64,000 nt of DNA from a phage, in the sequence record PZ452595.1. One strand, given 5' to 3'. The translations under genes and the position numbers were made by a program. This document shows positions 1,342 through 42,236 of the stretch, piece after piece (positions within the stretch are counted from its first letter, which is position 1; the number at the start of each line of letters is the position of its first letter). The notes under the pieces were generated by a model that was given only the letters and a program-made list of their open reading frames with translations, was not told the origin of the DNA and searched no databases.

Positions 1342-2666
1342 TTGATTTCCTCTAAATCTTTAGTGTATTCAGTAACTACATCAGTAGTTTTCCAATATTC
1401 ATTTTCTTCTTTTTTAGCTTTAGCTTCTTCAGCAAGTTTCTTTGCTTCATCGGAAGTCATATGAAAAATATTCATTCCAACTAGTTTATCAACATAAGAA
1501 GAATACATATCGATTTTCGAAAGTTCTTCGGTCAGTTCTTTACGAGTTTTACCCTGCACAACAATTTCACCTGAAATTACTTTCTTAATGAAATGTGCCT
1601 TGGCAAAGGCTAAACGAAAAGCTGACTCAGTTTCTTTAATTTTGTTATCAATTCGTTTTTGGACATAAGTTTTACGAACTTCAACGAAGTCTTTAATTAA
1701 ATCAACCACGTTATCGTAAACTTGTAGTTTTCCTTTCTCATTAATAACCGTAATATTCTGAGAACGACGCTCAATCAACCCGAAGTCTTTCATAATTTTT
1801 GCATGGCGTTCTTCTTCGTTATCGCTCAAAGAGTATTCTTTGCGGAATTTAACTTTGAAGCCAAAACCATGCTCACCACAAGCATCATCCCATGTAATGA
1901 AGCCTTTATCTTCAAGTGGGTCTAAGATTTTACTCACGTAAGTTTCACGATCATACTTATACGGAATCTCAGTGATATGCATTTGAGTTCGTGAAGTAAA
2001 CTTATATGTTCCACGAATTTCATATTGCCCATCAATTTCAACGACTTCACCACGAAATTCTGGGAATTCTACCTTCGGTTTAGTTACTTTCTTTCCTTGA
2101 AGAGCTTGTAGTACAGCTTTCTTGACAGAAGAAACACTATGAGGAAGAATGTAAGTTGCATAACCAGTTGCAATACCGGAAACGCCATTAAGAAGAACAG
2201 TAGGAATAATAGGCAAATAGAAAGCAGGCGGAATGTGTTCTTTATCTTGATGTACTGGAGCATATTCAGTATCTTTATATACGTTATAGAAATTTTTACT
2301 TACACGAGCAAAAATATAACGACTTGCCGCTGCCTTTTGGACAGTACGAGAACCGAAGTTTCCTTGACCATCTAACAGAGGAAAGTTATTATTCCAAGTG
2401 TTAGCCATCAAAGCTCCCGCATCTTGCGCAGAGTTTTCGCCATGGTGATATCCAAGGTCCGCTACACCACCTGCAATAGAAGCGAGTTTGTGAAACTTAT
2501 CTTTATTTCCTCGTGCCAAATCAAGAGCTCGAGCAATAACAAATCGTTGAACTGGCTTAAATCCATCAATCATATTTGGAATGGCACGATTTTCAACCGT
2601 GTACATAGCATAAGCCAATGCTTCATTATCAATGATACTTTTTAAATCGCGATTATTCAGTTGCAT
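1338..2666 (-). CDS. 52: DNA topoisomerase II medium subunit gp52 (GyrA-like)
   Basis: 442 aa as in T4 gp52; position between motA and ndd. Confidence 0.9.
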   Translation of the reverse strand: MQLNNRDLKSIIDNEALAYAMYTVENRAIPNMIDGFKPVQRFVIARALDLARGNKDKFHKLASIAGGVADLGYHHGENSAQDAGALMANTWNNNFPLLDGQGNFGSRTVQKAAASRYIFARVSKNFYNVYKDTEYAPVHQDKEHIPPAFYLPIIPTVLLNGVSGIATGYATYILPHSVSSVKKAVLQALQGKKVTKPKVEFPEFRGEVVEIDGQYEIRGTYKFTSRTQMHITEIPYKYDRETYVSKILDPLEDKGFITWDDACGEHGFGFKVKFRKEYSLSDNEEERHAKIMKDFGLIERRSQNITVINEKGKLQVYDNVVDLIKDFVEVRKTYVQKRIDNKIKETESAFRLAFAKAHFIKKVISGEIVVQGKTRKELTEELSKIDMYSSYVDKLVGMNIFHMTSDEAKKLAEEAKAKKEENEYWKTTDVVTEYTKDLEEIK

Positions 2667-2670
2667 AAAT

Positions 2671-2811
2671 TTACCATACTAGTGAATGTAGTGCCATAAT
2701 AACATCAGAAATGAAAAGCACGACTTGAATTAATCCGAACATTACTCCATAATATAGTGCTACCAATAAAGTAGCAAGGGCTAATGAATAGCCCAAGATT
2801 TTCTTAATCAT
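2671..2811 (-). CDS. small membrane peptide (~46 aa)
   Basis: Hand-translated MIKKILGYSLALATLLVALYYG...; ends 4 nt before gene 52 start. Confidence 0.4.
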   Translation of the reverse strand: MIKKILGYSLALATLLVALYYGVMFGLIQVVLFISDVIMALHSLVW

Positions 2812-2971
2812 TAGTAGATAACAACACAAATGTTAAATATGCACACATACCCTGGGCTAAAGCTTGTGAAAACACACTGCTAGCATCGATCAGATAGTTA
2901 AAACACATGCTACTATCCAACAAATAAATGAAATAACTCCTAATAATTTTGCGATATTCATAATATTCTCC

Positions 2972-3127
2972 TCAACTATTTTTAGAACCAATGTACGCGA
3001 ATAATGATAAAATCGCTAATACGCCCTGAGCTGATGCTTGTAAAAATACTGAAGTTTCTCCAGTTATTACTGTTCCGATGCATAAAAAGAACCAACAGAA
3101 AAAGGCTATACCGTGAACAAATTTCAT
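2972..3127 (-). CDS. small membrane protein (~51 aa), possibly ac (acridine sensitivity)
   Basis: Hand-translated MKFVHGIAFFCWFFLCIGTV...; size and position fit T4 ac by recall. Confidence 0.4.
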   Translation of the reverse strand: MKFVHGIAFFCWFFLCIGTVITGETSVFLQASAQGVLAILSLFAYIGSKNS

Positions 3128-3139
3128 ATTTTCCTCACT

Positions 3140-3155
3140 GGCGTCCGAAGACGCC
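3140..3155 (-). terminator. UUCG-tetraloop hairpin
   Basis: ggcgtccgaagacgcc; minus-strand loop UUCG. Confidence 0.5.
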
Positions 3156-3214
3156 TTTGGTTTTAAGATTGTTACGATAGAACTGCATCACATGTTCGTT
3201 ATGGAAATTACTCA

Positions 3215-3658
3215 TTAATATGCCTGCAAAACAAATTTAAAGTTATCAGCCAACATACGGTTCATTTCTTCAAGTGTTTGATACTCAGAATGATGATTAC
3301 GAGTAAACGCCAAAGCTAACTGACCTTTTCCAAATCCCGTCGTCAGAGGTTTCATCTTAGAAGCAGGCAGATAAAACACTGCGTATACCATATTGTTATT
3401 TGCAATAGTACGCGCAAGTTGAGACCGGCGTTGACGAATATGACTTAGAACTGCACTGAATCCTTGCTTAGAACGCTGATTACCTACATAAAATCGTGCA
3501 GATACGCATGAACCATCGAATTCACTTACTAAAAAGTAAAATCCAGGTTTAGACAAAATGTCTTTATGCGGAGTTCCCAAAAACCATTCACCACCCTTGA
3601 TTGTACCAATAACAGTAGCGCCTGCATCATTCAGATCAGTAACAGTCATATATTTCAT
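3215..3658 (-). CDS. ndd: Ndd, host nucleoid disruption protein
   Basis: C-terminal 147 aa (from [10 protein letters not shown]) match T4 Ndd by recall; SD GAGGAAA before ATG at 3658; track ORF extends to 3706. Confidence 0.8.
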
Positions 3659-3718
3659 ATTAATTTCCTCTAAATTATTTTCTACTCCAAGGCCGCATGA
3701 ATACACACGGCCATTAAA

Positions 3719-3934
3719 TTAATCGTCGCAGTCGACGCTCAATTCCCAAAACTCTTCTACAGTATAAGTTTCAGTATCATTTTCAATACAGAAACGTTCA
3801 TTACTATTATTTTCTAAAGTAGCGTTAACTGTCATTTTCTCGCTAGTGCTCTTAAGAGGTGAAATACGAATTAACTGATCACCGTTATCTAAACAAAAAA
3901 TTTCACCAACTTTTACATCTTTAAAGATTTTCAT
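3719..3934 (-). CDS. hypothetical protein (71 aa)
   Basis: ORF track; SD-like GAGG upstream. Confidence 0.55.
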   Translation of the reverse strand: MKIFKDVKVGEIFCLDNGDQLIRISPLKSTSEKMTVNATLENNSNERFCIENDTETYTVEEFWELSVDCDD

Positions 3935-4049
3935 AATTCACCTCAGGGAGTATAAAATCCAAACGCAGTTGTTGACCATCCCATCCAATACGGAAAATTT
4001 GCACCAATGTAAAACATAAGAATATAAAACCAACCGCTCAGCAAATTCA

Positions 4050-4268
4050 TCATTTTACACCGTTCCAAATTGTTTCAACCACAGATTTTAAACCATTTTG
4101 ATGAATATCAATTCCGACTACTGTCATCAAATAGATTCCAACTACAACTGAACCTAAGGCAAAAATCAGCATGAAAATGAATAAAGCCGGAAAAATATTA
4201 TCGAAAAACCATTCAATAAATGTAAAAGCACTGCGTTTACGCTTCATATTTTCCTCACATAAATCCAA
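4050..4268 (-). CDS. small membrane protein (72 aa)
   Basis: ORF track; long hydrophobic segment FPALFIFMLIFALGSVVVGIYLMTVVGI. Confidence 0.55.
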   Translation of the reverse strand: MDLCEENMKRKRSAFTFIEWFFDNIFPALFIFMLIFALGSVVVGIYLMTVVGIDIHQNGLKSVVETIWNGVK

Positions 4269-4729: not shown

Positions 4730-5287
4730 TTAAATGGAAAGATACCATCCGTTGTAGTTGCTTTTTCTTACAACCTTACGAAGGTCTTCTCTATCACCGA
4801 TGAACTTCGGAGTGTACTGGATGACACCTGGATGAATTTCTTTAGTGTTGAATATAATTATACAGTCAGCGACTTGATGATTTAGAATGGGCCCTAGATT
4901 TATTCCAGAACCGTATGGATACTCTCCGCTGCATCCTGTTGTTACAGAAATCCAACGTGAGTCAGTTTGATGTGTCTTAACTTCTACACGAAGCCCGCAG
5001 TATTTTGGATGCGCCAATACATCCCATGCATATGTGTACGGATCATCGACATCTTCTTGGCCTTTATTGACATATCCGCTTAGCCAATCTGCCACAAAAA
5101 ACTCTGCGTACACAGCGATACGGCATCTTTCGATAACTTCTGCCTTATCCTGATTTGGGTTCTGTTTTAAAGAGTATCTTGCAGTATCAGCAATTTTGAC
5201 CTTCATTTCACTAGTCAAGTCACTGTTCGATAGGGTAAATGTCGGAATCTGAAACAGTCTCTGTAAACCCGGATTCGTTTTCTGCAT
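4730..5287 (-). CDS. denB: DenB, endonuclease IV
   Basis: 185 aa as T4 DenB; position next to rIIB. Confidence 0.8.
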   Translation of the reverse strand: MQKTNPGLQRLFQIPTFTLSNSDLTSEMKVKIADTARYSLKQNPNQDKAEVIERCRIAVYAEFFVADWLSGYVNKGQEDVDDPYTYAWDVLAHPKYCGLRVEVKTHQTDSRWISVTTGCSGEYPYGSGINLGPILNHQVADCIIIFNTKEIHPGVIQYTPKFIGDREDLRKVVRKSNYNGWYLSI

Positions 5288-25538: not shown

Positions 25539-26965
25539 TAAAATTTTAATTCATTCGCCAAAGCATCTAACTGAGCTCGAGTGGATTCATTTCTTTGATA
25601 GCGATTCTGCTCAGCCTGAATCTGTTGTGAACCTGCTACTTCGTTCACTTCAGTTGGAGTAGAATCTTGTTCAATTTCTACCCATTTCTGATTTCCCTTT
25701 TGAACACCCATCAAAAACTTATTCCACTTATTCTTATCACCATATCGTGATTTGATTTGCTTAATGAGTTGTTGTTCAGCAGCTGCTAGCTCCTCGGTTT
25801 CAATGACCGCAAGCATAAAATCAGCTGTCGCTGGAAGACCAGCAGATTCTGCGATATCACTCATGTTAACATCAGAAGAATCCCAAGCTTGTTTGCCGAC
25901 CTGCGCTGCAGTCCAAAGAACAGTTTCGGTTTCAACAGCCAAAGCACGCAATTCCTCTGCAATAGCTTTAACAGTTGTGTAACTATTTTCTGAATAAACT
26001 CTAATACGGCAAGATTTACAAATACCAAGATAGTCGACAATAATGATTGTTGGAACAAAATTCTTCTTGAGCTTCAATTCGTTTAAAAGTGATCGAAATG
26101 TATTAGCATCTGCTCCACCAGTAGGATACTGTTTAACGATTAAACGCCCGAGAGTAGATTTCTCGCGCCATTTTTCCATTTTTCCTTTATACTCAGCGTA
26201 AGAAATATGCCCATCATCAATATCATCAAGAGAAACATCAAGCATATTAGCATCAATACGCTTAGCACAGACTTCTTCTGCCATTTCCATGGAAATGTAA
26301 AGAACGTTATGACCAAGCTGCAAATAATCTGCTGCCAATGAACACAATCCTAATGACTTACCAACGTTAACGCCAGCCATTAAAACGTTCAGTGTTCCAG
26401 TCTCAGCTCCGCCTTTAGTAATTTTGTTTAGAATTCTGAGTTTAAATGGAACCTTACGAGCTTTATTCATATAAGATAGCCAACGTGCTTCGTAGTCATC
26501 CATCCAGTCATGACCAACGTAGCTATCAAATGAAATTGATAATGCTTGCCGCATAATGTCAGGAATAGCACCAACATCCGGCATTTTCTTATTTCGTTTT
26601 TCCGGAGGAAGCTCAGCATTAGTTTGAATTTCGATTATTTTAGATGTAGCATTAAACATCGCCCTTTGCTGAACATATTTTTCTGTTTCTTTTACTAACC
26701 AGCTGTGGTCTTCCGGAGAATCAGCCAGTTTTGAAATAAGTGTTTTTACACCAGAATATTCTGTTTCAGTAAATGAACTATTTTCTAATGCAACATTTAA
26801 CGCATTAATAGATGGAACGCTATGATACTCATTGACATGAGATTTAATTAATTTGAATGTATTTTTAGCTGGACCACTTTCAAAATATTCTGAATCCATA
26901 TATGGCCAAACTTTTGAAAAATAAGCTTGATCAAATATGAGATGAGAAAGAATAATTTCTACCAC
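25538..26965 (-). CDS. 41: gp41 replicative DNA helicase
   Basis: 475 aa as T4 gp41; Walker A GVNVGKS. Confidence 0.9.
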   Translation of the reverse strand: MVEIILSHLIFDQAYFSKVWPYMDSEYFESGPAKNTFKLIKSHVNEYHSVPSINALNVALENSSFTETEYSGVKTLISKLADSPEDHSWLVKETEKYVQQRAMFNATSKIIEIQTNAELPPEKRNKKMPDVGAIPDIMRQALSISFDSYVGHDWMDDYEARWLSYMNKARKVPFKLRILNKITKGGAETGTLNVLMAGVNVGKSLGLCSLAADYLQLGHNVLYISMEMAEEVCAKRIDANMLDVSLDDIDDGHISYAEYKGKMEKWREKSTLGRLIVKQYPTGGADANTFRSLLNELKLKKNFVPTIIIVDYLGICKSCRIRVYSENSYTTVKAIAEELRALAVETETVLWTAAQVGKQAWDSSDVNMSDIAESAGLPATADFMLAVIETEELAAAEQQLIKQIKSRYGDKNKWNKFLMGVQKGNQKWVEIEQDSTPTEVNEVAGSQQIQAEQNRYQRNESTRAQLDALANELKF

Positions 26966-26974
26966 ACTTACTCC

Positions 26975-27337
26975 TTAAAAGAATTTAAATTTTTTCTTTG
27001 ACCTTTTATTAAATGCATCTTGTAGTTGCATTGTAATACATTTTTCTACATGAGGAGCTAACTCAGCTTTTCTTTCTTGGTCAAGAACAGCAAAGTCCAT
27101 TACAACCTTTCCATCAACCCAATCCAGTTTAGTTACATACACTATATGTGTAGAACCATCTTCTAGTTTAATGACAATCTCCTGGATAACATTTTCCATA
27201 GCAGATTTAATTATCTTAAGAGACTCATTAAAAAGACGTTCTTTTCTTTCTTCTTCCCCCTCCGAAGAGGGGGATTCATCGATAATTTCTAGATCTAAAT
27301 CTAAATCATCTTTATTCATTAAATTCTTCCATATCAC
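26975..27337 (-). CDS. 40: gp40-like protein (120 aa)
   Basis: Position between uvsX and 41 as T4 gene 40; acidic N-terminus. Confidence 0.65.
   Translation of the reverse strand: MIWKNLMNKDDLDLDLEIIDESPSSEGEEERKERLFNESLKIIKSAMENVIQEIVIKLEDGSTHIVYVTKLDWVDGKVVMDFAVLDQERKAELAPHVEKCITMQLQDAFNKRSKKKFKFF
27256..27273 (-). terminator. UUCG-tetraloop hairpin inside gene 40 coding sequence, just 3' of uvsX
   Basis: ccccctccgaagaggggg; 7-bp GC stem within codons ESPSSEGEE. Confidence 0.45.
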
Positions 27338-28493
27338 TTAACTGATCTAGATCAGTTTCTAAATCAGCTGCTGATTTACTTTTACTTTCTGGAGATTTAA
27401 ATTTTTCAACCTTTGAGTTAATCAATTCATCAACTTCAGCTTCAACAATTTCATTACTATCAATAGCACCTAACTGATAAGCACGTTTAATAGCATCTCG
27501 GAATGGTTGATGCTTAAATAAAGGACCCCAGAATGTAGTGCAGTTGGTATCTTTTGCACGCCAAGATTTTTCTTCGCGAATCATCTCGCCGGTTTCTTCG
27601 TCAAGAAATTCACGAGCATACCAACCGTTCTTAGGTTTTACCACGAATCCTAATTCTAGAGCCATATCTAACAATCCAGAATAAGGATCGATACCACCGT
27701 CAAATTTAACATCAATAAAGAATTTACTTTTTTCTTTAACGGTACGAGATTTTTCTACATTTAGAACAAATTGATACCCCTGAAGATCAGAACCATCTTT
27801 AATCTGGCGTTTACCGATAATGAATACAGTATCAGCCGAATACATTACGCCTGTACCACCTGTCATCACGGTTTTACTAAACATTTCAATTGTTTCAATT
27901 GTATGGTTAACCGCAACACATGGAATATTTTTAATGCTAAAATAAGGAGTAACAATACGGAATAATGACTTCAGTGATTTAGCACGAGTCATATCTGCCA
28001 CAGATTTTTCATTCAAGGCATCTTCCGTTTCTTTCTTAGAAGCCATATTACCGATTGAGTCGATGAATACAATAACCTTTTCACCACGCTCAATAGCTTC
28101 AAGCTGATTCACCATATCAATTTTCAGCTGTTCAACTGACTGAATTGGCGTATGAATTACTCGTTCCGGGTCAACTCCCATGGAACGTAAATAAGCTGGA
28201 GTAATACCAAATTCGCTATCATAGAATAGACAAACCGCGTCAGGATATTTGTTCAAATATGCCGCAACCATAGTCAAAGACATATTTGATTTAAAGTGTT
28301 TAGAAGGCCCTGCGAAAATAGTTAAACCAGACTGCATACCACCATCAATCGCACCAGAAATAGCGATATTAAGCATTGGGATTTTTGTACGGATTACATC
28401 CTTTTCATTAAAGAATTTAGATGTAGTCAGTTCAGCAGTCATTTTAGAAGTGGAAGCTTTAATCAAACGGGATTTTAAATCTGCAATAGACAT
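27312..28493 (-). CDS. uvsX: UvsX recombinase (RecA-like)
   Basis: 393 aa; MSIADLKSRLIKASTSK N-terminus as T4 UvsX. Confidence 0.9.
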   Translation of the reverse strand: MSIADLKSRLIKASTSKMTAELTTSKFFNEKDVIRTKIPMLNIAISGAIDGGMQSGLTIFAGPSKHFKSNMSLTMVAAYLNKYPDAVCLFYDSEFGITPAYLRSMGVDPERVIHTPIQSVEQLKIDMVNQLEAIERGEKVIVFIDSIGNMASKKETEDALNEKSVADMTRAKSLKSLFRIVTPYFSIKNIPCVAVNHTIETIEMFSKTVMTGGTGVMYSADTVFIIGKRQIKDGSDLQGYQFVLNVEKSRTVKEKSKFFIDVKFDGGIDPYSGLLDMALELGFVVKPKNGWYAREFLDEETGEMIREEKSWRAKDTNCTTFWGPLFKHQPFRDAIKRAYQLGAIDSNEIVEAEVDELINSKVEKFKSPESKSKSAADLETDLDQLSDMEEFNE

Positions 28494-28546
28494 TCATTTT
28501 TTCCATAGGCATCATTATATTTTCCTCACTGGTTAAAGATAGAGTA

Positions 28547-28571
28547 ATTATAACACAATAAATTTAGGCAT
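28547..28571 (-). promoter_or_regulatory. promoter-like element upstream of uvsX (extended -10)
   Basis: TGTTATAAT with TGCCTAA MotA-box-like element ~11 nt upstream. Confidence 0.35.
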
Positions 28572-29413
28572 TAATCAACTGCTATTGGATGAATAGCATT
28601 AAACTTATGAAATGCTTCTGATTTTTCTTTACGCGAAACACACATGCGAAGAACCTTTAATGGCTCATCTTCTTCACCCAACGATTTTCGTTTTTCAATA
28701 TTAGAAGTTTTCCAACGAGCTTGTTCTGGAAACTCTCTATTGATTTGCTCAAGCGCTCTATTATGTTTAGAATTACTACGAATTGAACTGCACCCGCCAG
28801 GAGCTTGTGCTTTTCCAGATACAACCAGATATTTGAACAAGGCCAAATGCGGATAACCTTGATTAATTAAATTGAGAAATGCATACATATCTTCGCATAA
28901 ATCAATTTTTCCATACCCAATTTGTTCTGTCGTAAGTTTTCCGAGGTCATACCATGTATTCGTGAATCCATATGAATTTTCACGATAATTACCCCAAGAT
29001 GAAGTAATTTTAAAAATAGGTAGACGAGCATGGCCATGATAATACCCGCAATCCATGGCATCTTCAACGTATTGAATCAATTCATAGAACTGTTCACGAG
29101 TTAATTGATTAACTTTATCTACGCAGCGACGATCATCTCTCTTTCGCATTGAACTCATACGAATAGTAGTATCATCGTCAATCATCCAGATTCGTTGACC
29201 TGCATACATATCAGTAATAGCTTTACGAGTACCGGCAATTCCATTTACATCATCAGGAATAGTTATAATTTTAGCTCTAGACCCATAGGCATCACAATAA
29301 GCTTTTTCTTCGTGTTCACGCACTACAATATGCGGTTCATAATCAGTCGGAAACATATCAAGGGCAGAAACTGCCCCAACACGCTGATAACTTGGAATTA
29401 CGAATTGAATCAT
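28571..29413 (-). CDS. glycosyltransferase (DxD type), occupying the T4 beta-gt position
   Basis: ~280 aa from ATG (track start is GTG); IWMIDDDTTI DxD motif; ATGA coupling with gene 42. Confidence 0.6.
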   Translation of the reverse strand: MIQFVIPSYQRVGAVSALDMFPTDYEPHIVVREHEEKAYCDAYGSRAKIITIPDDVNGIAGTRKAITDMYAGQRIWMIDDDTTIRMSSMRKRDDRRCVDKVNQLTREQFYELIQYVEDAMDCGYYHGHARLPIFKITSSWGNYRENSYGFTNTWYDLGKLTTEQIGYGKIDLCEDMYAFLNLINQGYPHLALFKYLVVSGKAQAPGGCSSIRSNSKHNRALEQINREFPEQARWKTSNIEKRKSLGEEDEPLKVLRMCVSRKEKSEAFHKFNAIHPIAVD

Positions 29414-30150
29414 TTCCACTCACCTTTATAGTCTTTTTTCACAATATGAGTTTCGCCAGTATTCCACCAATGATCAACCAAGTAAAAATGACGAGAATAT
29501 ACATGAAGACTTCCAACATTCCATATAATAGAACCTGCTTTATACTGACGAGTTGAATCGCCTGCATTCAAATCAGATACTAATTTATCTAATACGTATT
29601 TTTGCCATGCATAATCATTACGGAATCCGAAGACTACGTCATTTGAGCGCATGTTAACAACTGCATTGATTTTCTTGTCACGAATCAGGTATTGTACTGT
29701 ATTCGTACACATGAAATCTGACATACCATCTTTATTGTAGTCAAATTGCATAGATGGACGAGTATAAATCATGATACCACGTCGAGAATCAGGATTTTGA
29801 CCAAGTTCAGCTAAACACATATCATACTGAGCATAATTATCTTCTGACCAAATAGCCCAACCATAATTCGAGTTAATTTCACCTTTAGAAGATGCTACTT
29901 GTTGCCAAATCTTCGGTGTTTCACCCGGAATATCTTTAACGAACAAGCTCTTAGATTTATACCATTCAAGTTCACGCTGGATGTATTCATCATTAAGAGC
30001 GCCAAAAATAAACGGTTCATCTGCTACAAATGATGCGCCAATAATTTCAATAGTTTTAACGCCAGTTTTATCAACTACGAAATCTTTTTCTTTTAATGCA
30101 AGCCCCAAATGAAGACGGATTTCTTCAACTGTCATAGAGTCACTAATCAT
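29410..30150 (-). CDS. 42: gp42 dCMP hydroxymethylase
   Basis: 246 aa as T4 gp42; thymidylate-synthase-like with catalytic Cys in FMCTNT. Confidence 0.85.
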   Translation of the reverse strand: MISDSMTVEEIRLHLGLALKEKDFVVDKTGVKTIEIIGASFVADEPFIFGALNDEYIQRELEWYKSKSLFVKDIPGETPKIWQQVASSKGEINSNYGWAIWSEDNYAQYDMCLAELGQNPDSRRGIMIYTRPSMQFDYNKDGMSDFMCTNTVQYLIRDKKINAVVNMRSNDVVFGFRNDYAWQKYVLDKLVSDLNAGDSTRQYKAGSIIWNVGSLHVYSRHFYLVDHWWNTGETHIVKKDYKGEWK

Positions 30151-30303
30151 TTAAACCTCAATTGATACATTCATATTTAACTTGTAACAGTAATAAACTC
30201 CAACCTAAAATAATAGTTGGAATCATAAGAGGAACCGTTACACTATAGTATATACTTATTATAACCATCAAGATTAAAAGCAACACTGCTATAATTTTGC
30301 TTT

Positions 30304-30555
30304 TCATTCCTTCTCTCTGATGATAATTACTTGATTTGGCTGTGCAGACTTTTTAGTTTCACCCGCAATTGACCAAATAAATGTAATAAACCAACCAATA
30401 ATTGACCAGTTAAACAGCAAAGATGTGAAAAAGATTCCTACTGTCGATTTTGACCCACGCATCAAGGCGATGAACCATGGAAGCATGTATATAATAATAG
30501 CCAACACGCCTGAAACTAAAACCATAAAAATTGAACCTGTTACTAAAGTTTCCAT
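30304..30555 (-). CDS. imm: Imm, superinfection immunity membrane protein
   Basis: 83 aa, two TM segments, as T4 Imm. Confidence 0.8.
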   Translation of the reverse strand: METLVTGSIFMVLVSGVLAIIIYMLPWFIALMRGSKSTVGIFFTSLLFNWSIIGWFITFIWSIAGETKKSAQPNQVIIIREKE

Positions 30556-30562
30556 CTTTTCC

Positions 30563-30943
30563 TCACTTAGTCAAATTTTTTACGCATGAATTATAAGAAT
30601 TCACTACATACTCCATCGGAGCATTTTTACCAGTACGCCATTGGTAATTATTAGCCCAATTAGCCCAAATTTCGGCGCAGTAGTTTTCAATTTTTTCTTC
30701 GCGTGTAATTACATCCGAATTACGATATGCTTGAGCAGATTCATCTGGGCGAATAGCTTCGTCAAAATTCGCCTGCATTTGTTCTACTGTCTGTTTTGGA
30801 GCTTCTTTATAACACTTGACATTAGGATTATAAAATTTGCTTGAACAGTTTACAATTTTTCCTACATCAGACTGATTTACTACCGGTCCTTGAGCTACAC
30901 AACCAGTAAGACCTAATGCAATAACCAAAATAGCGATTTTCAT
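30563..30943 (-). CDS. putative lipoprotein (126 aa)
   Basis: ORF track; signal peptide with lipobox LTGC. Confidence 0.6.
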   Translation of the reverse strand: MKIAILVIALGLTGCVAQGPVVNQSDVGKIVNCSSKFYNPNVKCYKEAPKQTVEQMQANFDEAIRPDESAQAYRNSDVITREEKIENYCAEIWANWANNYQWRTGKNAPMEYVVNSYNSCVKNLTK

Positions 30944-30955
30944 AATAATTTCCTC

Positions 30956-31207
30956 TTAAAACTTAACAAATAACTTTAAAGCATCTTCAGTTTTAATTCC
31001 TTTTCTTACACCCATAACAGAAATTGGCTGTGACTGAAATTTTCCTTTACCATTATAAATTTCTAATCCAGTCACCATTCCATTTTGTTCTATAATACCG
31101 TAAGTGTTACCTTCATTTTCAAATTCTTTAACTTTAAAGAGTTTATTAGCTTTTTCTGCATTAACAACTTTTAAATTTTGAATAAAATTAGTTTGAATAT
31201 TTTTCAT
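30956..31207 (-). CDS. hypothetical protein (83 aa)
   Basis: ORF track; conserved early promoter + SD cassette upstream. Confidence 0.55.
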   Translation of the reverse strand: MKNIQTNFIQNLKVVNAEKANKLFKVKEFENEGNTYGIIEQNGMVTGLEIYNGKGKFQSQPISVMGVRKGIKTEDALKLFVKF

Positions 31208-31235
31208 TTTGTGTTCCTCCGTAGTTGATAGTTGT

Positions 31236-31265
31236 ATAGTACCACAGAGGAACAGTCTTGTAAAC
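31236..31265 (-). promoter_or_regulatory. T4-type early promoter
   Basis: GTTTACA - 17 nt - TACTAT; 54-nt identity with cassette at 56150. Confidence 0.6.
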
Positions 31266-31352
31266 AGTTTTGTGAAAAAATTTTTAGGGAATTCTAAAGG
31301 TCCAGAATCATCTGTTTTTCATAAGTATAGATTTATATTACTTGTATGAAAA

Positions 31353-31370
31353 AGGGACCCGGAGGTCCCT
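31353..31370 (-). terminator. tetraloop hairpin after gene 43
   Basis: agggacccggaggtccct; loop UCCG on minus strand. Confidence 0.55.
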
Positions 31371-31382
31371 AGATTTATTCTA

Positions 31383-34079
31383 TCAGCCAAACAGGAAGTC
31401 TAACGAAGCTTTTTCTTCATAGTCCATACCAGCCGATTCACACATACCCGCAAGCGGTTTAACAAACGATTTTTGGAACAAAGTTGAGTAGTCAATCCAA
31501 GACAGTACATCAGAACGAATTTCTTTTGGAAGTTCTGTGCCCGACGGCCAAGCAATGCACTTGTCACCAAATGGATTTCCTTCACGCAATGGAAGAACCA
31601 TTACCTTATTTCCATCCAAAATTGGAGCTACACCCAGACCACTAACAGCTCGACGATAAGTTAGCACACCACGAATATGGAACGGGCATTTAAATCCTGG
31701 CCAACCTTTATCATCATATTTCGCTATATCGTTCGCAGTTTTTACTTCAGCAATAACTTTATAGTCAAGTTGACGATATTCTTTCTCGAAGTTCTTGTAA
31801 TATTCTTGGACAGACTCTTCGCCTTCCTGAAGAATACGACGAATACTTTCTTCGAGAGCTTCTTGCACTGCTTTTGGTGTTGAGCTCTGCTGAGTTTCCA
31901 TACCCATGATTTTTAGATGTGGTTCAGCAAATCGCTTATCTTCCATATCATAAACGTTCAGAGCATAACGCTTTTTCGCTTTCCAAAATCCACCGACGCC
32001 CTTTGAACCAAGCGGAGGGCAAGAAATAGCTTCACGGTCCATATGCATCAGATGCTCGCGGTTATTCATATAATCACATAACTCACGATATGCAACATCA
32101 ATCATAGGTTCCATCTTTTTCTTACCGAACTGATTCATGAATTCAACTAAATCGTTCTGCTCTTTGAATCGGTCAAGACCAACTTTTTCAATAACTTTAT
32201 CTACGCAAACATATACCGAATCAGTATCACCTGCCGCGATGAAATCTTCACCATTAGTTCCGCATACTTTATTCAGATATTCATTAATTTTACGAGCAAT
32301 CCACTGAATACCAACTTGGCCGAAAATTGTGATAGCAGTAGCATTTCGCAAATCATAGTAACGGAAATGAATATTACCAAGAGCACCATAAAGACTGTTA
32401 ATAAGAATTTTACGGTTCAGCTGATTTGTGTTAGCAAGTGTAGCTGCTTTTTCACATTCCTCAATCAGACTATTGAGAACAGATTCAGTATAATTCGATA
32501 GTTCATTTAAGAAATCATCACTGAACTTAACATATCGTTCAACTTCTGGTTTAGTTGAACAGGACCCTGCGCCTTTCATAATAATCTTTTTAATAGCTTC
32601 GGCATTCATTTCTTCAGCGAACATTTTCTTTTTCCAATCTTTACGCTGGAAAAATACTTTAGCGATTTCCTTTGGAATGATACCTTCTTGATGCTTATCA
32701 TACATCCATCCATTCGGAGAACAAGAATATTCATCACTTGGTTTAGGAGCTGTTCCTGCGATATATTCATGAATTGGATGAACTTTAAACTGTCCACGAA
32801 TAGTCTCAGGACTAATGTTAACCTGACGAATAATGCTCGGATACAGAGACGTCAAGTCAAAACTCATAATATATCGACGAGCAATTGGTTTAGGTTCAAA
32901 CACAAATGCACCCGGAAAACTCTGTTTAACGTGCGAACCTTGTTGAGGAATAACCTTATGTTCACCTTTCAATGAGTTAAAAATAATAGCATCCCAAGTT
33001 TTAATAGGACTCATTACACCAGAAAAAGGCATTTTAGCGTAATAAGACATACTTAAAACTAGATCGATAAACCCGCGAATTTTATCAATTGCTTGAACTG
33101 ATTCTACGTCAATGATGTTATAACTAATGTATCGTTGATGATTAGTCTCACGAAGTTTATTAATAGGACCGTCGTATGGTAATTTACCTTTTTTGGTTTC
33201 ATGTTGAGCAACTGATTCCAAAGAGAATGACGGCAAATTAGTAAAAGCGAATTTCTTGTACAAATCTAAATAATCAAGAATAGATACGCCATCAATAGAA
33301 TAAATTTCTTTGCTACCGTACATATTTTGAATTAGTTTAGATTTTACCCGACCGATTGGAGAGAAACGTTTCATACTGCGTTCACCTAGAATCATTTTAA
33401 CGCGATTCATAATATATGGAACGTCAAACCCCTCAATATTCCAACCAGTAAAAATAGCAGGTCGTTTCTGTTCCCAGAGATTGATATATTCCATGAGCAT
33501 ATCACGCTCATTATCGAATGGCATATAAATTACTCGGTCAAGAATTTCTTGAGGAACTTCATCACCACCTTCACAGTCAAGCTTAGCAGCTAACTTTGCA
33601 TCCCATTTTGATACTGAACCGTACATTGAATTCAACAAATCAAAGACATAAAAACGGTCATCAATTGAATCGTAATGAGTGATAGCATCAATTTCATATT
33701 CTGCTTTCATTGGGTCAGGAAATTTATCACCAGTAACCTCAATGTCACAGTTAGCTACACGAACAAATTTTCGGTCATAAACAATTTCTGAACCATATGT
33801 ATCACTGATATAAGCGAGTTTAAAATCGTTCATACCGAGAGCTTCGAGACCGATGTCTTCCATTCGCTTCATCCAATCTCGAGCATCTTTCATTGATGGA
33901 AATTTTTGAGGAGCACAGTTTTTACCATAGATGTCTTTGTATTTTGACTCTTCCTTACAATGCCTAAACATAGTCGGAAGATATTCTACTTCACGGGTAC
34001 GTTCCTTTCCATTTTCATCAATATAACGTTCAACAATGTTATTTCCGACTGTTTCAATAGAGATATAAAATTCTTTCAT
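31383..34079 (-). CDS. 43: gp43 DNA polymerase (family B)
   Basis: 898 aa as T4 gp43; exonuclease and polymerase motifs (YGDTDS). Confidence 0.95.
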   Translation of the reverse strand: MKEFYISIETVGNNIVERYIDENGKERTREVEYLPTMFRHCKEESKYKDIYGKNCAPQKFPSMKDARDWMKRMEDIGLEALGMNDFKLAYISDTYGSEIVYDRKFVRVANCDIEVTGDKFPDPMKAEYEIDAITHYDSIDDRFYVFDLLNSMYGSVSKWDAKLAAKLDCEGGDEVPQEILDRVIYMPFDNERDMLMEYINLWEQKRPAIFTGWNIEGFDVPYIMNRVKMILGERSMKRFSPIGRVKSKLIQNMYGSKEIYSIDGVSILDYLDLYKKFAFTNLPSFSLESVAQHETKKGKLPYDGPINKLRETNHQRYISYNIIDVESVQAIDKIRGFIDLVLSMSYYAKMPFSGVMSPIKTWDAIIFNSLKGEHKVIPQQGSHVKQSFPGAFVFEPKPIARRYIMSFDLTSLYPSIIRQVNISPETIRGQFKVHPIHEYIAGTAPKPSDEYSCSPNGWMYDKHQEGIIPKEIAKVFFQRKDWKKKMFAEEMNAEAIKKIIMKGAGSCSTKPEVERYVKFSDDFLNELSNYTESVLNSLIEECEKAATLANTNQLNRKILINSLYGALGNIHFRYYDLRNATAITIFGQVGIQWIARKINEYLNKVCGTNGEDFIAAGDTDSVYVCVDKVIEKVGLDRFKEQNDLVEFMNQFGKKKMEPMIDVAYRELCDYMNNREHLMHMDREAISCPPLGSKGVGGFWKAKKRYALNVYDMEDKRFAEPHLKIMGMETQQSSTPKAVQEALEESIRRILQEGEESVQEYYKNFEKEYRQLDYKVIAEVKTANDIAKYDDKGWPGFKCPFHIRGVLTYRRAVSGLGVAPILDGNKVMVLPLREGNPFGDKCIAWPSGTELPKEIRSDVLSWIDYSTLFQKSFVKPLAGMCESAGMDYEEKASLDFLFG

Positions 34080-41017: not shown

Positions 41018-41035
41018 AAAGGGCCGAAGCCCTTT
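41018..41035 (-). terminator. UUCG-tetraloop hairpin after a-gt
   Basis: aaagggccgaagcccttt. Confidence 0.55.
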
Positions 41036-42236
41036 ATTTTGTAATAATGTCAAACTGTTCTTTAAAGCAGAAGCTTGAATCTTGATGCTGATACAAAAAT
41101 TCATATGCTTTTTCTCGCTCACGGTCATAAAGAGCTCGATCAGATGACAGTTCTTTAATACGCTCGAATGTTGATTCCATGTCATTTTCATCAAACCAAA
41201 TGATACCGCTATCATGCGAGGTCAAAGGAGTATTATCAACACGGAATTTCAAATTATCACCCGTTGATTTCCAGAAAACAGGAATTGTACCGCAAGCACC
41301 AAGCTCGAGATGAGTATATTCTAAAGAACGTTGTAGATATTTTTTGTCCAACTTACTCAGCTGATAACCAAATCCGGATTTACTCATGCGTTCAAGCATT
41401 TCGCTATTTACATAACGGTCAAGAATTTGCGTTGGCAAATTAGGAGCAATTTTAATTTGGTCTACTTGATGAAGACGATAATACTCGTATGGAATTCCTT
41501 TTTCTTTAATAGGAATGAACGCTGGAGAACGTTCCAGACCTTCCATAACAGTACTTAGTCCTGCAGGTTTAAGATGTTTTTCGTGAAAATCAAACATCTG
41601 ATAAAAACCTTTCCATGTAGTCGTACGACCAATCCAACGGTTGATATTCATGTTAATTTCAGAAACATCTTTCCAGTAGGTTGATCGAACCTTCGCAATA
41701 TCCATAGGAGGCTGAAAGTTATATACGGTTGGTGCTTCTTCAATATCATCAAACAGAGAAACTGTTTCTGGATACCATTCTTTCATCAGAACTTTATTAA
41801 AATCACCATTATCAGAATGGCTAAAAATAACATCAGCTCGACGAACAGTTTCTTCTAATCCCAAATTTCGGCGCAAAGAAAGAGAAGAATGGTCATGTTG
41901 ATAAACTACAACACGAACCGAAGGTTTAATGTTATCAATAATTTTTTTATAGTTATTAATAGTATCTTCTTCAACTGAAGTAGCAGGAACTGAATTGATA
42001 ATTAGAATATCACAATCATTTACCAGCTTAAGTGTTTTATCGTATTCTTTTGCCAATAAAACCGGAATTGAAAATGATTTATAATCATGTGCACAGTTAC
42101 GAGTAAATGATTTATCTTTAGCATAAACCAAAGTTACTTCATGACCATTTTTAATAAACCAATCACGTTGCTCAAGAGAAAATTTAGTTACACCACAACC
42201 TTCAAGACCTCGAGCCATAAAAATACATACTTTCAT
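41034..42236 (-). CDS. agt: alpha-glucosyltransferase
   Basis: 400 aa; near-identical to T4 a-gt by recall (CIFMARGLEGCGVTKFSLEQ). Confidence 0.85.
   Translation of the reverse strand: MKVCIFMARGLEGCGVTKFSLEQRDWFIKNGHEVTLVYAKDKSFTRNCAHDYKSFSIPVLLAKEYDKTLKLVNDCDILIINSVPATSVEEDTINNYKKIIDNIKPSVRVVVYQHDHSSLSLRRNLGLEETVRRADVIFSHSDNGDFNKVLMKEWYPETVSLFDDIEEAPTVYNFQPPMDIAKVRSTYWKDVSEINMNINRWIGRTTTWKGFYQMFDFHEKHLKPAGLSTVMEGLERSPAFIPIKEKGIPYEYYRLHQVDQIKIAPNLPTQILDRYVNSEMLERMSKSGFGYQLSKLDKKYLQRSLEYTHLELGACGTIPVFWKSTGDNLKFRVDNTPLTSHDSGIIWFDENDMESTFERIKELSSDRALYDREREKAYEFLYQHQDSSFCFKEQFDIITK

Follow-up and report, generated by a model that had tools for sequence, protein, structure and literature searches.

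In phage T4, segA and the gene for the 351-aa beta-glucosyltransferase (beta-gt) are annotated between uvsX and gene 42. The locus studied here raises the question of which enzyme takes this place in another T4-like phage, and of what it does to hydroxymethylcytosine (hmC) in the phage DNA. We analysed a stretch of 64,000 nucleotides (sequence record PZ452595.1), referred to below as the window. A preliminary description, made from the letters alone, had noticed a protein of ~280 aa with an IWMIDDDTTI motif, flanked by uvsX and gene 42, and its coordinates, length, motif and flanks all agree with the list of open reading frames. From a GTG codon the frame covers 28571..29419 on the minus strand and encodes 282 aa. 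The ATG at 29413, which is also the start annotated in T2, gives a product of 280 aa that ends at a TAA codon (28571..28573). The coordinates of the features are collected in Table 1.

Table 1 Features of the glucosyltransferase locus and its partner genes in the window.
Feature	Position	Strand	Basis
ba-gt ORF	28571..29413	minus	ORF list; T2/T6 identity, PF20691, PHROG 842, codon substitutions
Asp79-Asp80-Asp81 codons (DxD), predicted site for divalent metal and UDP-sugar diphosphate	29171..29179	minus	Family alignment
Glu174-Asp175 codons (CED), putative catalytic base for an inverting GT-A mechanism	28889..28894	minus	Family alignment
Arg11 codon, PSYQR motif after strand 1, family-invariant	29381..29383	minus	Alignment and homologues
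Gene 42, dCMP hydroxymethylase, makes the hmC precursor	29410..30150	minus	ORF; PF00303; T4 DNA identity
a-gt, DNA alpha-glucosyltransferase, makes the alpha-glucosyl-hmC acceptor	41034..42236	minus	T4 identity, PF11440
uvsX	27312..28493	minus	Downstream neighbour of ba-gt
uvsX spacer, 77 nt, between ba-gt and uvsX	28494..28570	minus	Sequence; identical in T2 and T6
Segment without T4 DNA homology, 946 bp	28482..29427		blastn of window 26000..32000 against T4

The ATG of the gene runs into the stop codon of gene 42 (TGA, 29410..29412) as ATGA, an overlap that we take to be the usual mark of co-transcription and translational coupling and which suggests that the two genes are expressed in this way. 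Since the glucosyltransferase gene would be read together with gene 42, we infer that it is expressed early or in the middle period, alongside hmC synthesis. Gene 42 itself falls into the thymidylate-synthase family of Pfam, and by blastn its DNA and what lies beyond, as far as window position 29428, are 96.9% identical to T4. 'Thymidylate synthase' is a widespread label for gene 42 in database records. Base composition is continuous across the region, with no break, and the gene occupies the Tevenvirinae slot between gene 42 and uvsX, where a TET-associated glycosyltransferase (TAGT) has likewise been placed (PMC13390438).

We are highly confident that the gene encodes the T2/T6-type beta-glucosyl-HMC-alpha-glucosyltransferase (ba-gt or ggt; PF20691), the enzyme of the standard second glucosylation step, as had been guessed from the letters. 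Over the full 280 aa, the window protein shares 98.9% identity with its T2 counterpart, in each of two independent T2 records, and 98.6% with that of T6. The Pfam family PF20691 (TAGT) is matched at 41.6 bits, above its gathering cut-off of 27.5, and the match runs across the profile in full, from position 2 to 205 of 205. PHROG 842, which is annotated as beta-glucosyl-HMC-alpha-glucosyltransferase, is matched at 1e-88, and neither this protein nor alpha-gt has an NCBIfam model. A megablast search with the locus returned 475 phage records covering at least 80% of it, with a top identity of 98.9%, and many of these records name the gene 'beta-glucosyl-HMC-alpha-glucosyltransferase', 'beta-alpha-glucosyltransferase' or ggt. 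The likeness to T2 and T6 extends to the surroundings: the slot is the same, gene 42 is likewise overlapped through ATGA, the spacer between ba-gt and uvsX is identical, and the alpha-gt partner is shared.

Compared with T2, T6 and the IMG/VR relatives, the gene shows 22-28 synonymous codon differences and only 1-4 non-synonymous ones, and because the differences are almost all synonymous, we regard ba-gt as a working gene under purifying selection. We also weighed and rejected a pseudogene, as the frame is unbroken, no invariant residue has been lost and most substitutions are synonymous. The activity of the enzyme has been known since the 1960s, and Winkler and Rueger reportedly cloned the ba-gt genes of T2 and T6 (in 1993, Nucleic Acids Res). 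The gene, its position, fold class, product and effect on defence are already published, and it is annotated in hundreds of genomes. For the window, gene identity, family, fold class, motif conservation, synteny, the alpha-gt partner and the absence of beta-gt were computed in the present work.

The fold was modelled by AlphaFold with a family alignment of ten sequences, down to 32% identity, obtained from a word-indexed search of 5.8 billion proteins (11 clusters). PF20691 was present on all nine of the database homologues that have a precomputed Pfam entry, and a scan of IMG/VR gave only relatives at identities of at least 62%. With few clusters and only these IMG/VR relatives, the alignment lacks depth, and the model is poor in its C-terminal half. 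The model reached a pLDDT of 70 (85-95 in the N-terminal half) and a pTM of 0.72, and it is poorly defined at residues 126-151, 196-211 and 261-280; the model from the single sequence (pLDDT 38) was unusable. In the model, the protein adopts the GT-A fold of nucleotide-diphospho-sugar transferases and not the two-domain GT-B fold, and its fourth strand is followed by a DxD motif. This motif, Asp79-Asp80-Asp81 within IWMIDDDTTI (residues 75-84), comes after the fourth beta-strand of the Rossmann-like half and is invariant both in the ten-sequence alignment and in a homologue of 24% identity, so the label 'DxD-type' in the preliminary description was apt. The other residues invariant in the alignment are Pro7-Ser8-Tyr9, Arg11, Gly58, Thr62, Arg63, Asp175 and Gly206-Gly207, and Glu174 is nearly invariant.

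Drawing on general knowledge of GT-A and GT2 enzymes, in particular for the metal role of Asp79 and Asp81, we infer that Asp79-Asp80-Asp81 most likely hold a divalent metal and the UDP diphosphate. GT2 enzymes carry a (T)ED base motif at some distance after their DxD; the CED motif of the window protein lies at a similar spacing, ~95 residues past the DxD, and its Asp175 is the probable catalytic base. An inverting mechanism is proposed because it would fit the beta product. In the PDB sequences, phmmer found two chance hits with E above 1 and no structure of the family detectable by sequence, and a weak profile match (E = 0.21) pairs the DDD with the DDD of the GT2 beta-1,3-glucosyltransferase 9jma_A. 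We compared ba-gt with inverting GT-A enzymes of the GT2 type, namely TarP, TarS, the AvpGT/PglI-like beta-1,3-glucosyltransferase and the catalytic domain of BcsA. Unlike these enzymes, to which it shows no significant sequence similarity (E = 0.21), ba-gt has DNA-borne glucose as its predicted acceptor, and its C-terminal 70 residues, which are basic and poorly modelled, have no counterpart among them. A published AlphaFold3 model of the T6 TAGT is likewise of the GT-A fold and clusters as a sister to GT2.

Both alpha-gt, the first-step hmC glucosyltransferase, and gene 42, for hmC synthesis, were found in the window. The a-gt product is 92% identical to T4 alpha-gt over all 400 aa and matches PF11440 at 2.5e-237, which bears out the earlier remark that a-gt is conserved. 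With these two genes present, the window encodes hmC synthesis, the first glucose and the second glucose. We propose the following pathway, the chemistry of which is taken from the literature. Gene 42 would make hydroxymethyl-dCMP, which replication would build into DNA, and alpha-gt would attach an alpha-linked glucose to hmC in the DNA. Then ba-gt, as a small inverting enzyme of GT-A fold with metal and UDP held by its DDD and Asp175 as the base, would add a second glucose from UDP-glucose in beta-1,6 linkage, resulting in gentiobiosyl-hmC. The phage DNA should in that case contain hmC, alpha-glucosyl-hmC and gentiobiosyl-hmC, and no beta-glucosyl-hmC. Judging from its sequence, the window enzyme is expected to make gentiobiosyl-hmC from UDP-glucose and alpha-glucosyl-hmC DNA, and for ba-gt such an activity on alpha-glucosyl-hmC DNA is documented by T6 genetics (PMC11078745) and by LC-MS of near relatives (PMC13390438).

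How much second glucose is added is a separate matter. The preliminary description had predicted a T2/T6-like pattern; this holds for the type of gene, and the level is not fixed by the sequence alone. Gentiobiosyl-hmC amounts to about 5% in T2 and about 72% in T6 (PMC6024577). The Durham Tequatroviruses encode alpha-GT and a TAGT that is syntenic with the T4 beta-GT position, and HPLC/MS divides them into two classes, one with hmC, alpha-glucosyl-hmC and alpha-gentiobiosyl-hmC at about 1:2:2, and the other with about one-third hmC and two-thirds gentiobiosyl-hmC (PMC13390438). In none of the Durham Tequatroviruses analysed by HPLC/MS was beta-glucosyl-hmC found (PMC13390438). JK1 and CM8, the nearest database relatives of the Durham phages, are 98.2-98.3% identical to the window locus.

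The alleles can be told apart at a few residues. At residue 40, the window has Cys, T2 has Tyr and T6 has Asn; Cys40 (TGT, 29294..29296) is the sole private substitution of the window allele, all close relatives examined having Tyr or Asn, and the position is variable across the family (Y/N/C/E and others). At residue 11, the window has Arg whereas T2 has His (SYQH; PV648363, locus 3037..3039, and AP018813), and Arg11 is found in every homologue examined, down to 24% identity, except both T2 records. Each of the two public T6 genome records carries a lesion of its own in ba-gt. In MH550421, codon 10 reads TAG for CAG (window 29384..29386; locus 4923..4980) and the ba-gt CDS is annotated from a downstream Met, with 261 aa. 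In AP018814, one GAT of GAT-GAT-GAT is gone (locus ~4735; window 29171..29179), by which one Asp of the DDD is lost and 279 aa remain. For T6, the classical high-gentiobiose phage, this means either that the function was lost or weakened in the stocks concerned or that the records are in error. Both the amber codon and the Asp deletion of these records are absent from the window gene.

From the residues we lean towards an active, T6-like enzyme in the window, because all invariant residues are kept, including Arg11, which is His in T2. An unlikely alternative is that the allele is weak or inactive, in which case the DNA would essentially resemble that of T2, with mono-alpha-glucosyl-hmC predominating and gentiobiosyl-hmC at a few per cent, or would lack the second glucose altogether. 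Nearly identical genes are indeed associated with outcomes as far apart as 5% in T2 and 72% in T6 (PMC6024577, PMC11078745), and the Durham phages split into a 1:2:2 class and a class with roughly two-thirds gentiobiosyl-hmC (PMC13390438). Laboratory-stock lesions also occur, as with the amber codon 10 of MH550421 and the lost DDD Asp of AP018814, and the window has its private Cys40. However, the window gene is full-length with every invariant residue in place, the DDD as well as Arg11, its differences from relatives are almost only synonymous, and position 40 varies in the family.

Beyond an active T6-like enzyme in the window, a broader reading would have the level of second glucose tuned by small changes in ba-gt. 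His11 would then account for the 5% of T2, the window allele would be a fully active T6-type enzyme, and the lesions in the T6 records would reflect ready loss where no defence selects for the gene. We regard this reading, put together from conservation and the published percentages only, as tentative and rather doubtful. If it were true, the window enzyme would gentiobiosylate most of the glucosylated sites, and ba-gt would be easily lost or down-tuned wherever no defence selects for it. A link between R11H and the low gentiobiosylation of T2 is not stated in the literature examined.

Another alternative concerns the acceptor. The enzyme might act directly on hmC, or transfer another sugar or form another linkage, and would then be a functional replacement of beta-gt and not a second-step enzyme; we consider this very improbable. 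It can appeal to PF20691 being defined on glycosyltransferases associated with TET/JBP dioxygenases, and to a survey in which 288 of 753 phages have a solitary TAGT homologue without alpha-GT or beta-GT (PMC13216743). Homologues are moreover paired with beta-GT in CC31 and in Tequatrovirus G3F8, which argues that acceptor specificity is not uniform across the TAGT family. However, 98.6% identity to T6 makes a change of specificity very unlikely in the window enzyme, T6 without ba-gt is reported to keep only alpha-glucosyl-hmC (PMC11078745), and relatives have alpha-linked gentiobiose and no beta-glucosyl-hmC (PMC13390438). The TAGT family was named for members beside TET/JBP-type dioxygenases; unlike with such TAGTs, the hmC of the window would be made at the nucleotide level by the thymidylate-synthase-like gene 42, and the acceptor of ba-gt would be the sugar on hmC and not hmC itself. 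In classical genetics, alpha-gt mutants of T2 and T6 have unglucosylated DNA, and for this reason ba-gt would not be expected to use bare hmC.

The sequence comparisons also separate the second-step enzyme from T4 beta-gt. BLASTP of the window protein against the 351-aa T4 beta-gt detected no similarity (best E = 2.2), and tblastn searches of the whole 64-kb window gave a best E of 1.5 with T4 beta-gt and of 5.0 with SegA. The only Pfam family matched by the window protein is PF20691, and T4 beta-gt matches PF09198 at 9e-98. The preliminary description had seen no resemblance to T4 beta-gt and had proposed aligning the protein to it as well as to the T2/T6 enzyme. The first alignment gave no full-length match and the second the 98.9% and 98.6% identities, both in agreement with its view. 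In the DNA, blastn homology to T4 ends at 28481 and restarts at 29428, the junctions falling in the codons that open uvsX and in those that close gene 42; the window segment between them stands in for a segment of 1941 bp with segA and beta-gt in T4.

The idea that the gene is T4's beta-gt diverged past recognition, to which the shared slot between gene 42 and uvsX and record labels such as 'b-gt' or 'putative beta-glucosyltransferase' might lead, can practically be dismissed, refuted as it is by sequence (BLASTP E = 2.2), by Pfam family (PF20691 against PF09198), by fold class (the window model matches GT-A only, whereas T4 beta-GT is GT-B; PMC13216743) and by the coexistence of both genes, which adjoin in CC31 and G3F8. 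Since TAGT and beta-gt stand side by side in these two phages, they are not alleles, nor are they alternatives for a single site in every lineage. The window ba-gt and T4 beta-gt share the genomic slot, the UDP-glucose donor, a beta linkage, which implies inversion, and the general role of decorating DNA that contains hmC, but they are unrelated in sequence and fold (PF09198 and GT-B for T4), and the acceptor of the T4 enzyme is hmC itself. No metal-binding DxD is known to be involved in T4 beta-gt. The T4 slot differs further in that it also carries a homing endonuclease, segA.

At least three states of the slot between gene 42 and uvsX were found: segA with beta-gt in T4; TAGT alone in the window, T2 and T6; and TAGT followed by beta-gt in Karamvirus CC31 and the E. 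coli Tequatrovirus G3F8. In the phage collection, tblastn found a ba-gt homologue in 689 records, with identity reaching at least 95% in 472, and T4-type beta-gt at 90% identity or more in 29 records. With 472 records against 29, the window has the arrangement of the majority and T4 is the exception, a status that is also supported for T4 among the T4-like coliphages by PMC13216743. The earlier framing of the locus was right about a T2/T6-type gene and mistaken in treating the departure from T4 as a surprise, this being the majority arrangement in T4-like coliphages. It is the commonest arrangement in the genus, and nothing of it is new.

Several database records deserve a remark. In CC31 (locus 2168..4077) and G3F8 (locus 2153..4077), the TAGT adjoins a beta-gt homologue that is 49-55% identical to that of T4, and the G3F8 TAGT shares 96% identity with the window protein. 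One may ask whether beta-glucosyl-hmC, too, can serve as an acceptor for this enzyme. In RB55 (KM607002), a T4-type beta-gt is labelled 'beta-glucosyl-HMC-alpha-glucosyl-transferase', and in RB10 (KM606999) the TAGT carries the gene name b-gt. Labels are also mixed up in MN781580, MF327007 and others, several of which call the TAGT 'putative beta-glucosyltransferase'. PV654520.1, entered as 'Pseudomonas phage vB_PSGBLB0006' with P. aeruginosa as its host, is 98.3% identical to the window locus, and its host assignment or sample looks doubtful.

For the defence phenotype we turned to the literature. Deletion of ba-gt from T6 leaves alpha-glucosyl-hmC only, the DNA becomes degradable by Brig1 in vitro and the phage is more sensitive to Brig1 in vivo (PMC11078745), findings that back the expectation in the preliminary description of an altered response to glucose-dependent defence systems. 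The expected modification pattern alters the set of modification-dependent defences to which the phage DNA is open. The presence of ba-gt predicts the make-up of this DNA, and it bears on restriction enzymes, glycosylases such as Brig1, enzymes of the GmrSD/BrxU type and CRISPR, as well as on sequencing and cloning behaviour.

A few observations were made around the gene. The spacer in front of uvsX carries an extended -10 element, TGtTATAAT (28555..28547), preceded by a MotA-box-like TGCCTAA (28570..28564). By comparison with the T4 middle-promoter consensus, these elements probably form a middle promoter of uvsX that lies outside the enzyme system; the sigma-70 scan did not list this promoter. 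That scan, run over the region together with a terminator search, gave 11 promoter-like sites against 9.8 expected from shuffling, none above expectation. A terminator-like hairpin on the minus strand (29361..29377), GGGGCAGTTTCTGCCCT followed by TGATATGTTT, falls inside the 5' end of ba-gt at codons 13-21. It is kept in T2 and T6, and the region has two such sites against 0.8 expected; because it encodes conserved residues, the hairpin may be a coincidence.

Between gene 42 and imm, a strongly hydrophobic ORF of 49 aa (MKSKIIAVLLLILM...) lies on the minus strand at 30158..30307, and a Pfam search with it gave no match. It is nearly identical in T4 (26227..26376), where NC_000866 leaves the interval unannotated, and it is annotated as hypothetical in T2 PV648363 and in G3F8. 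Between imm.1 and gene 43, where T4 has 19 bp, the window has an insertion of 274 bp (30944..31217). The insertion holds an ORF of 83 aa on the minus strand (30956..31207), for which a Pfam search likewise returned no match, and at the same place T2 carries a hypothetical gene of 252 nt.
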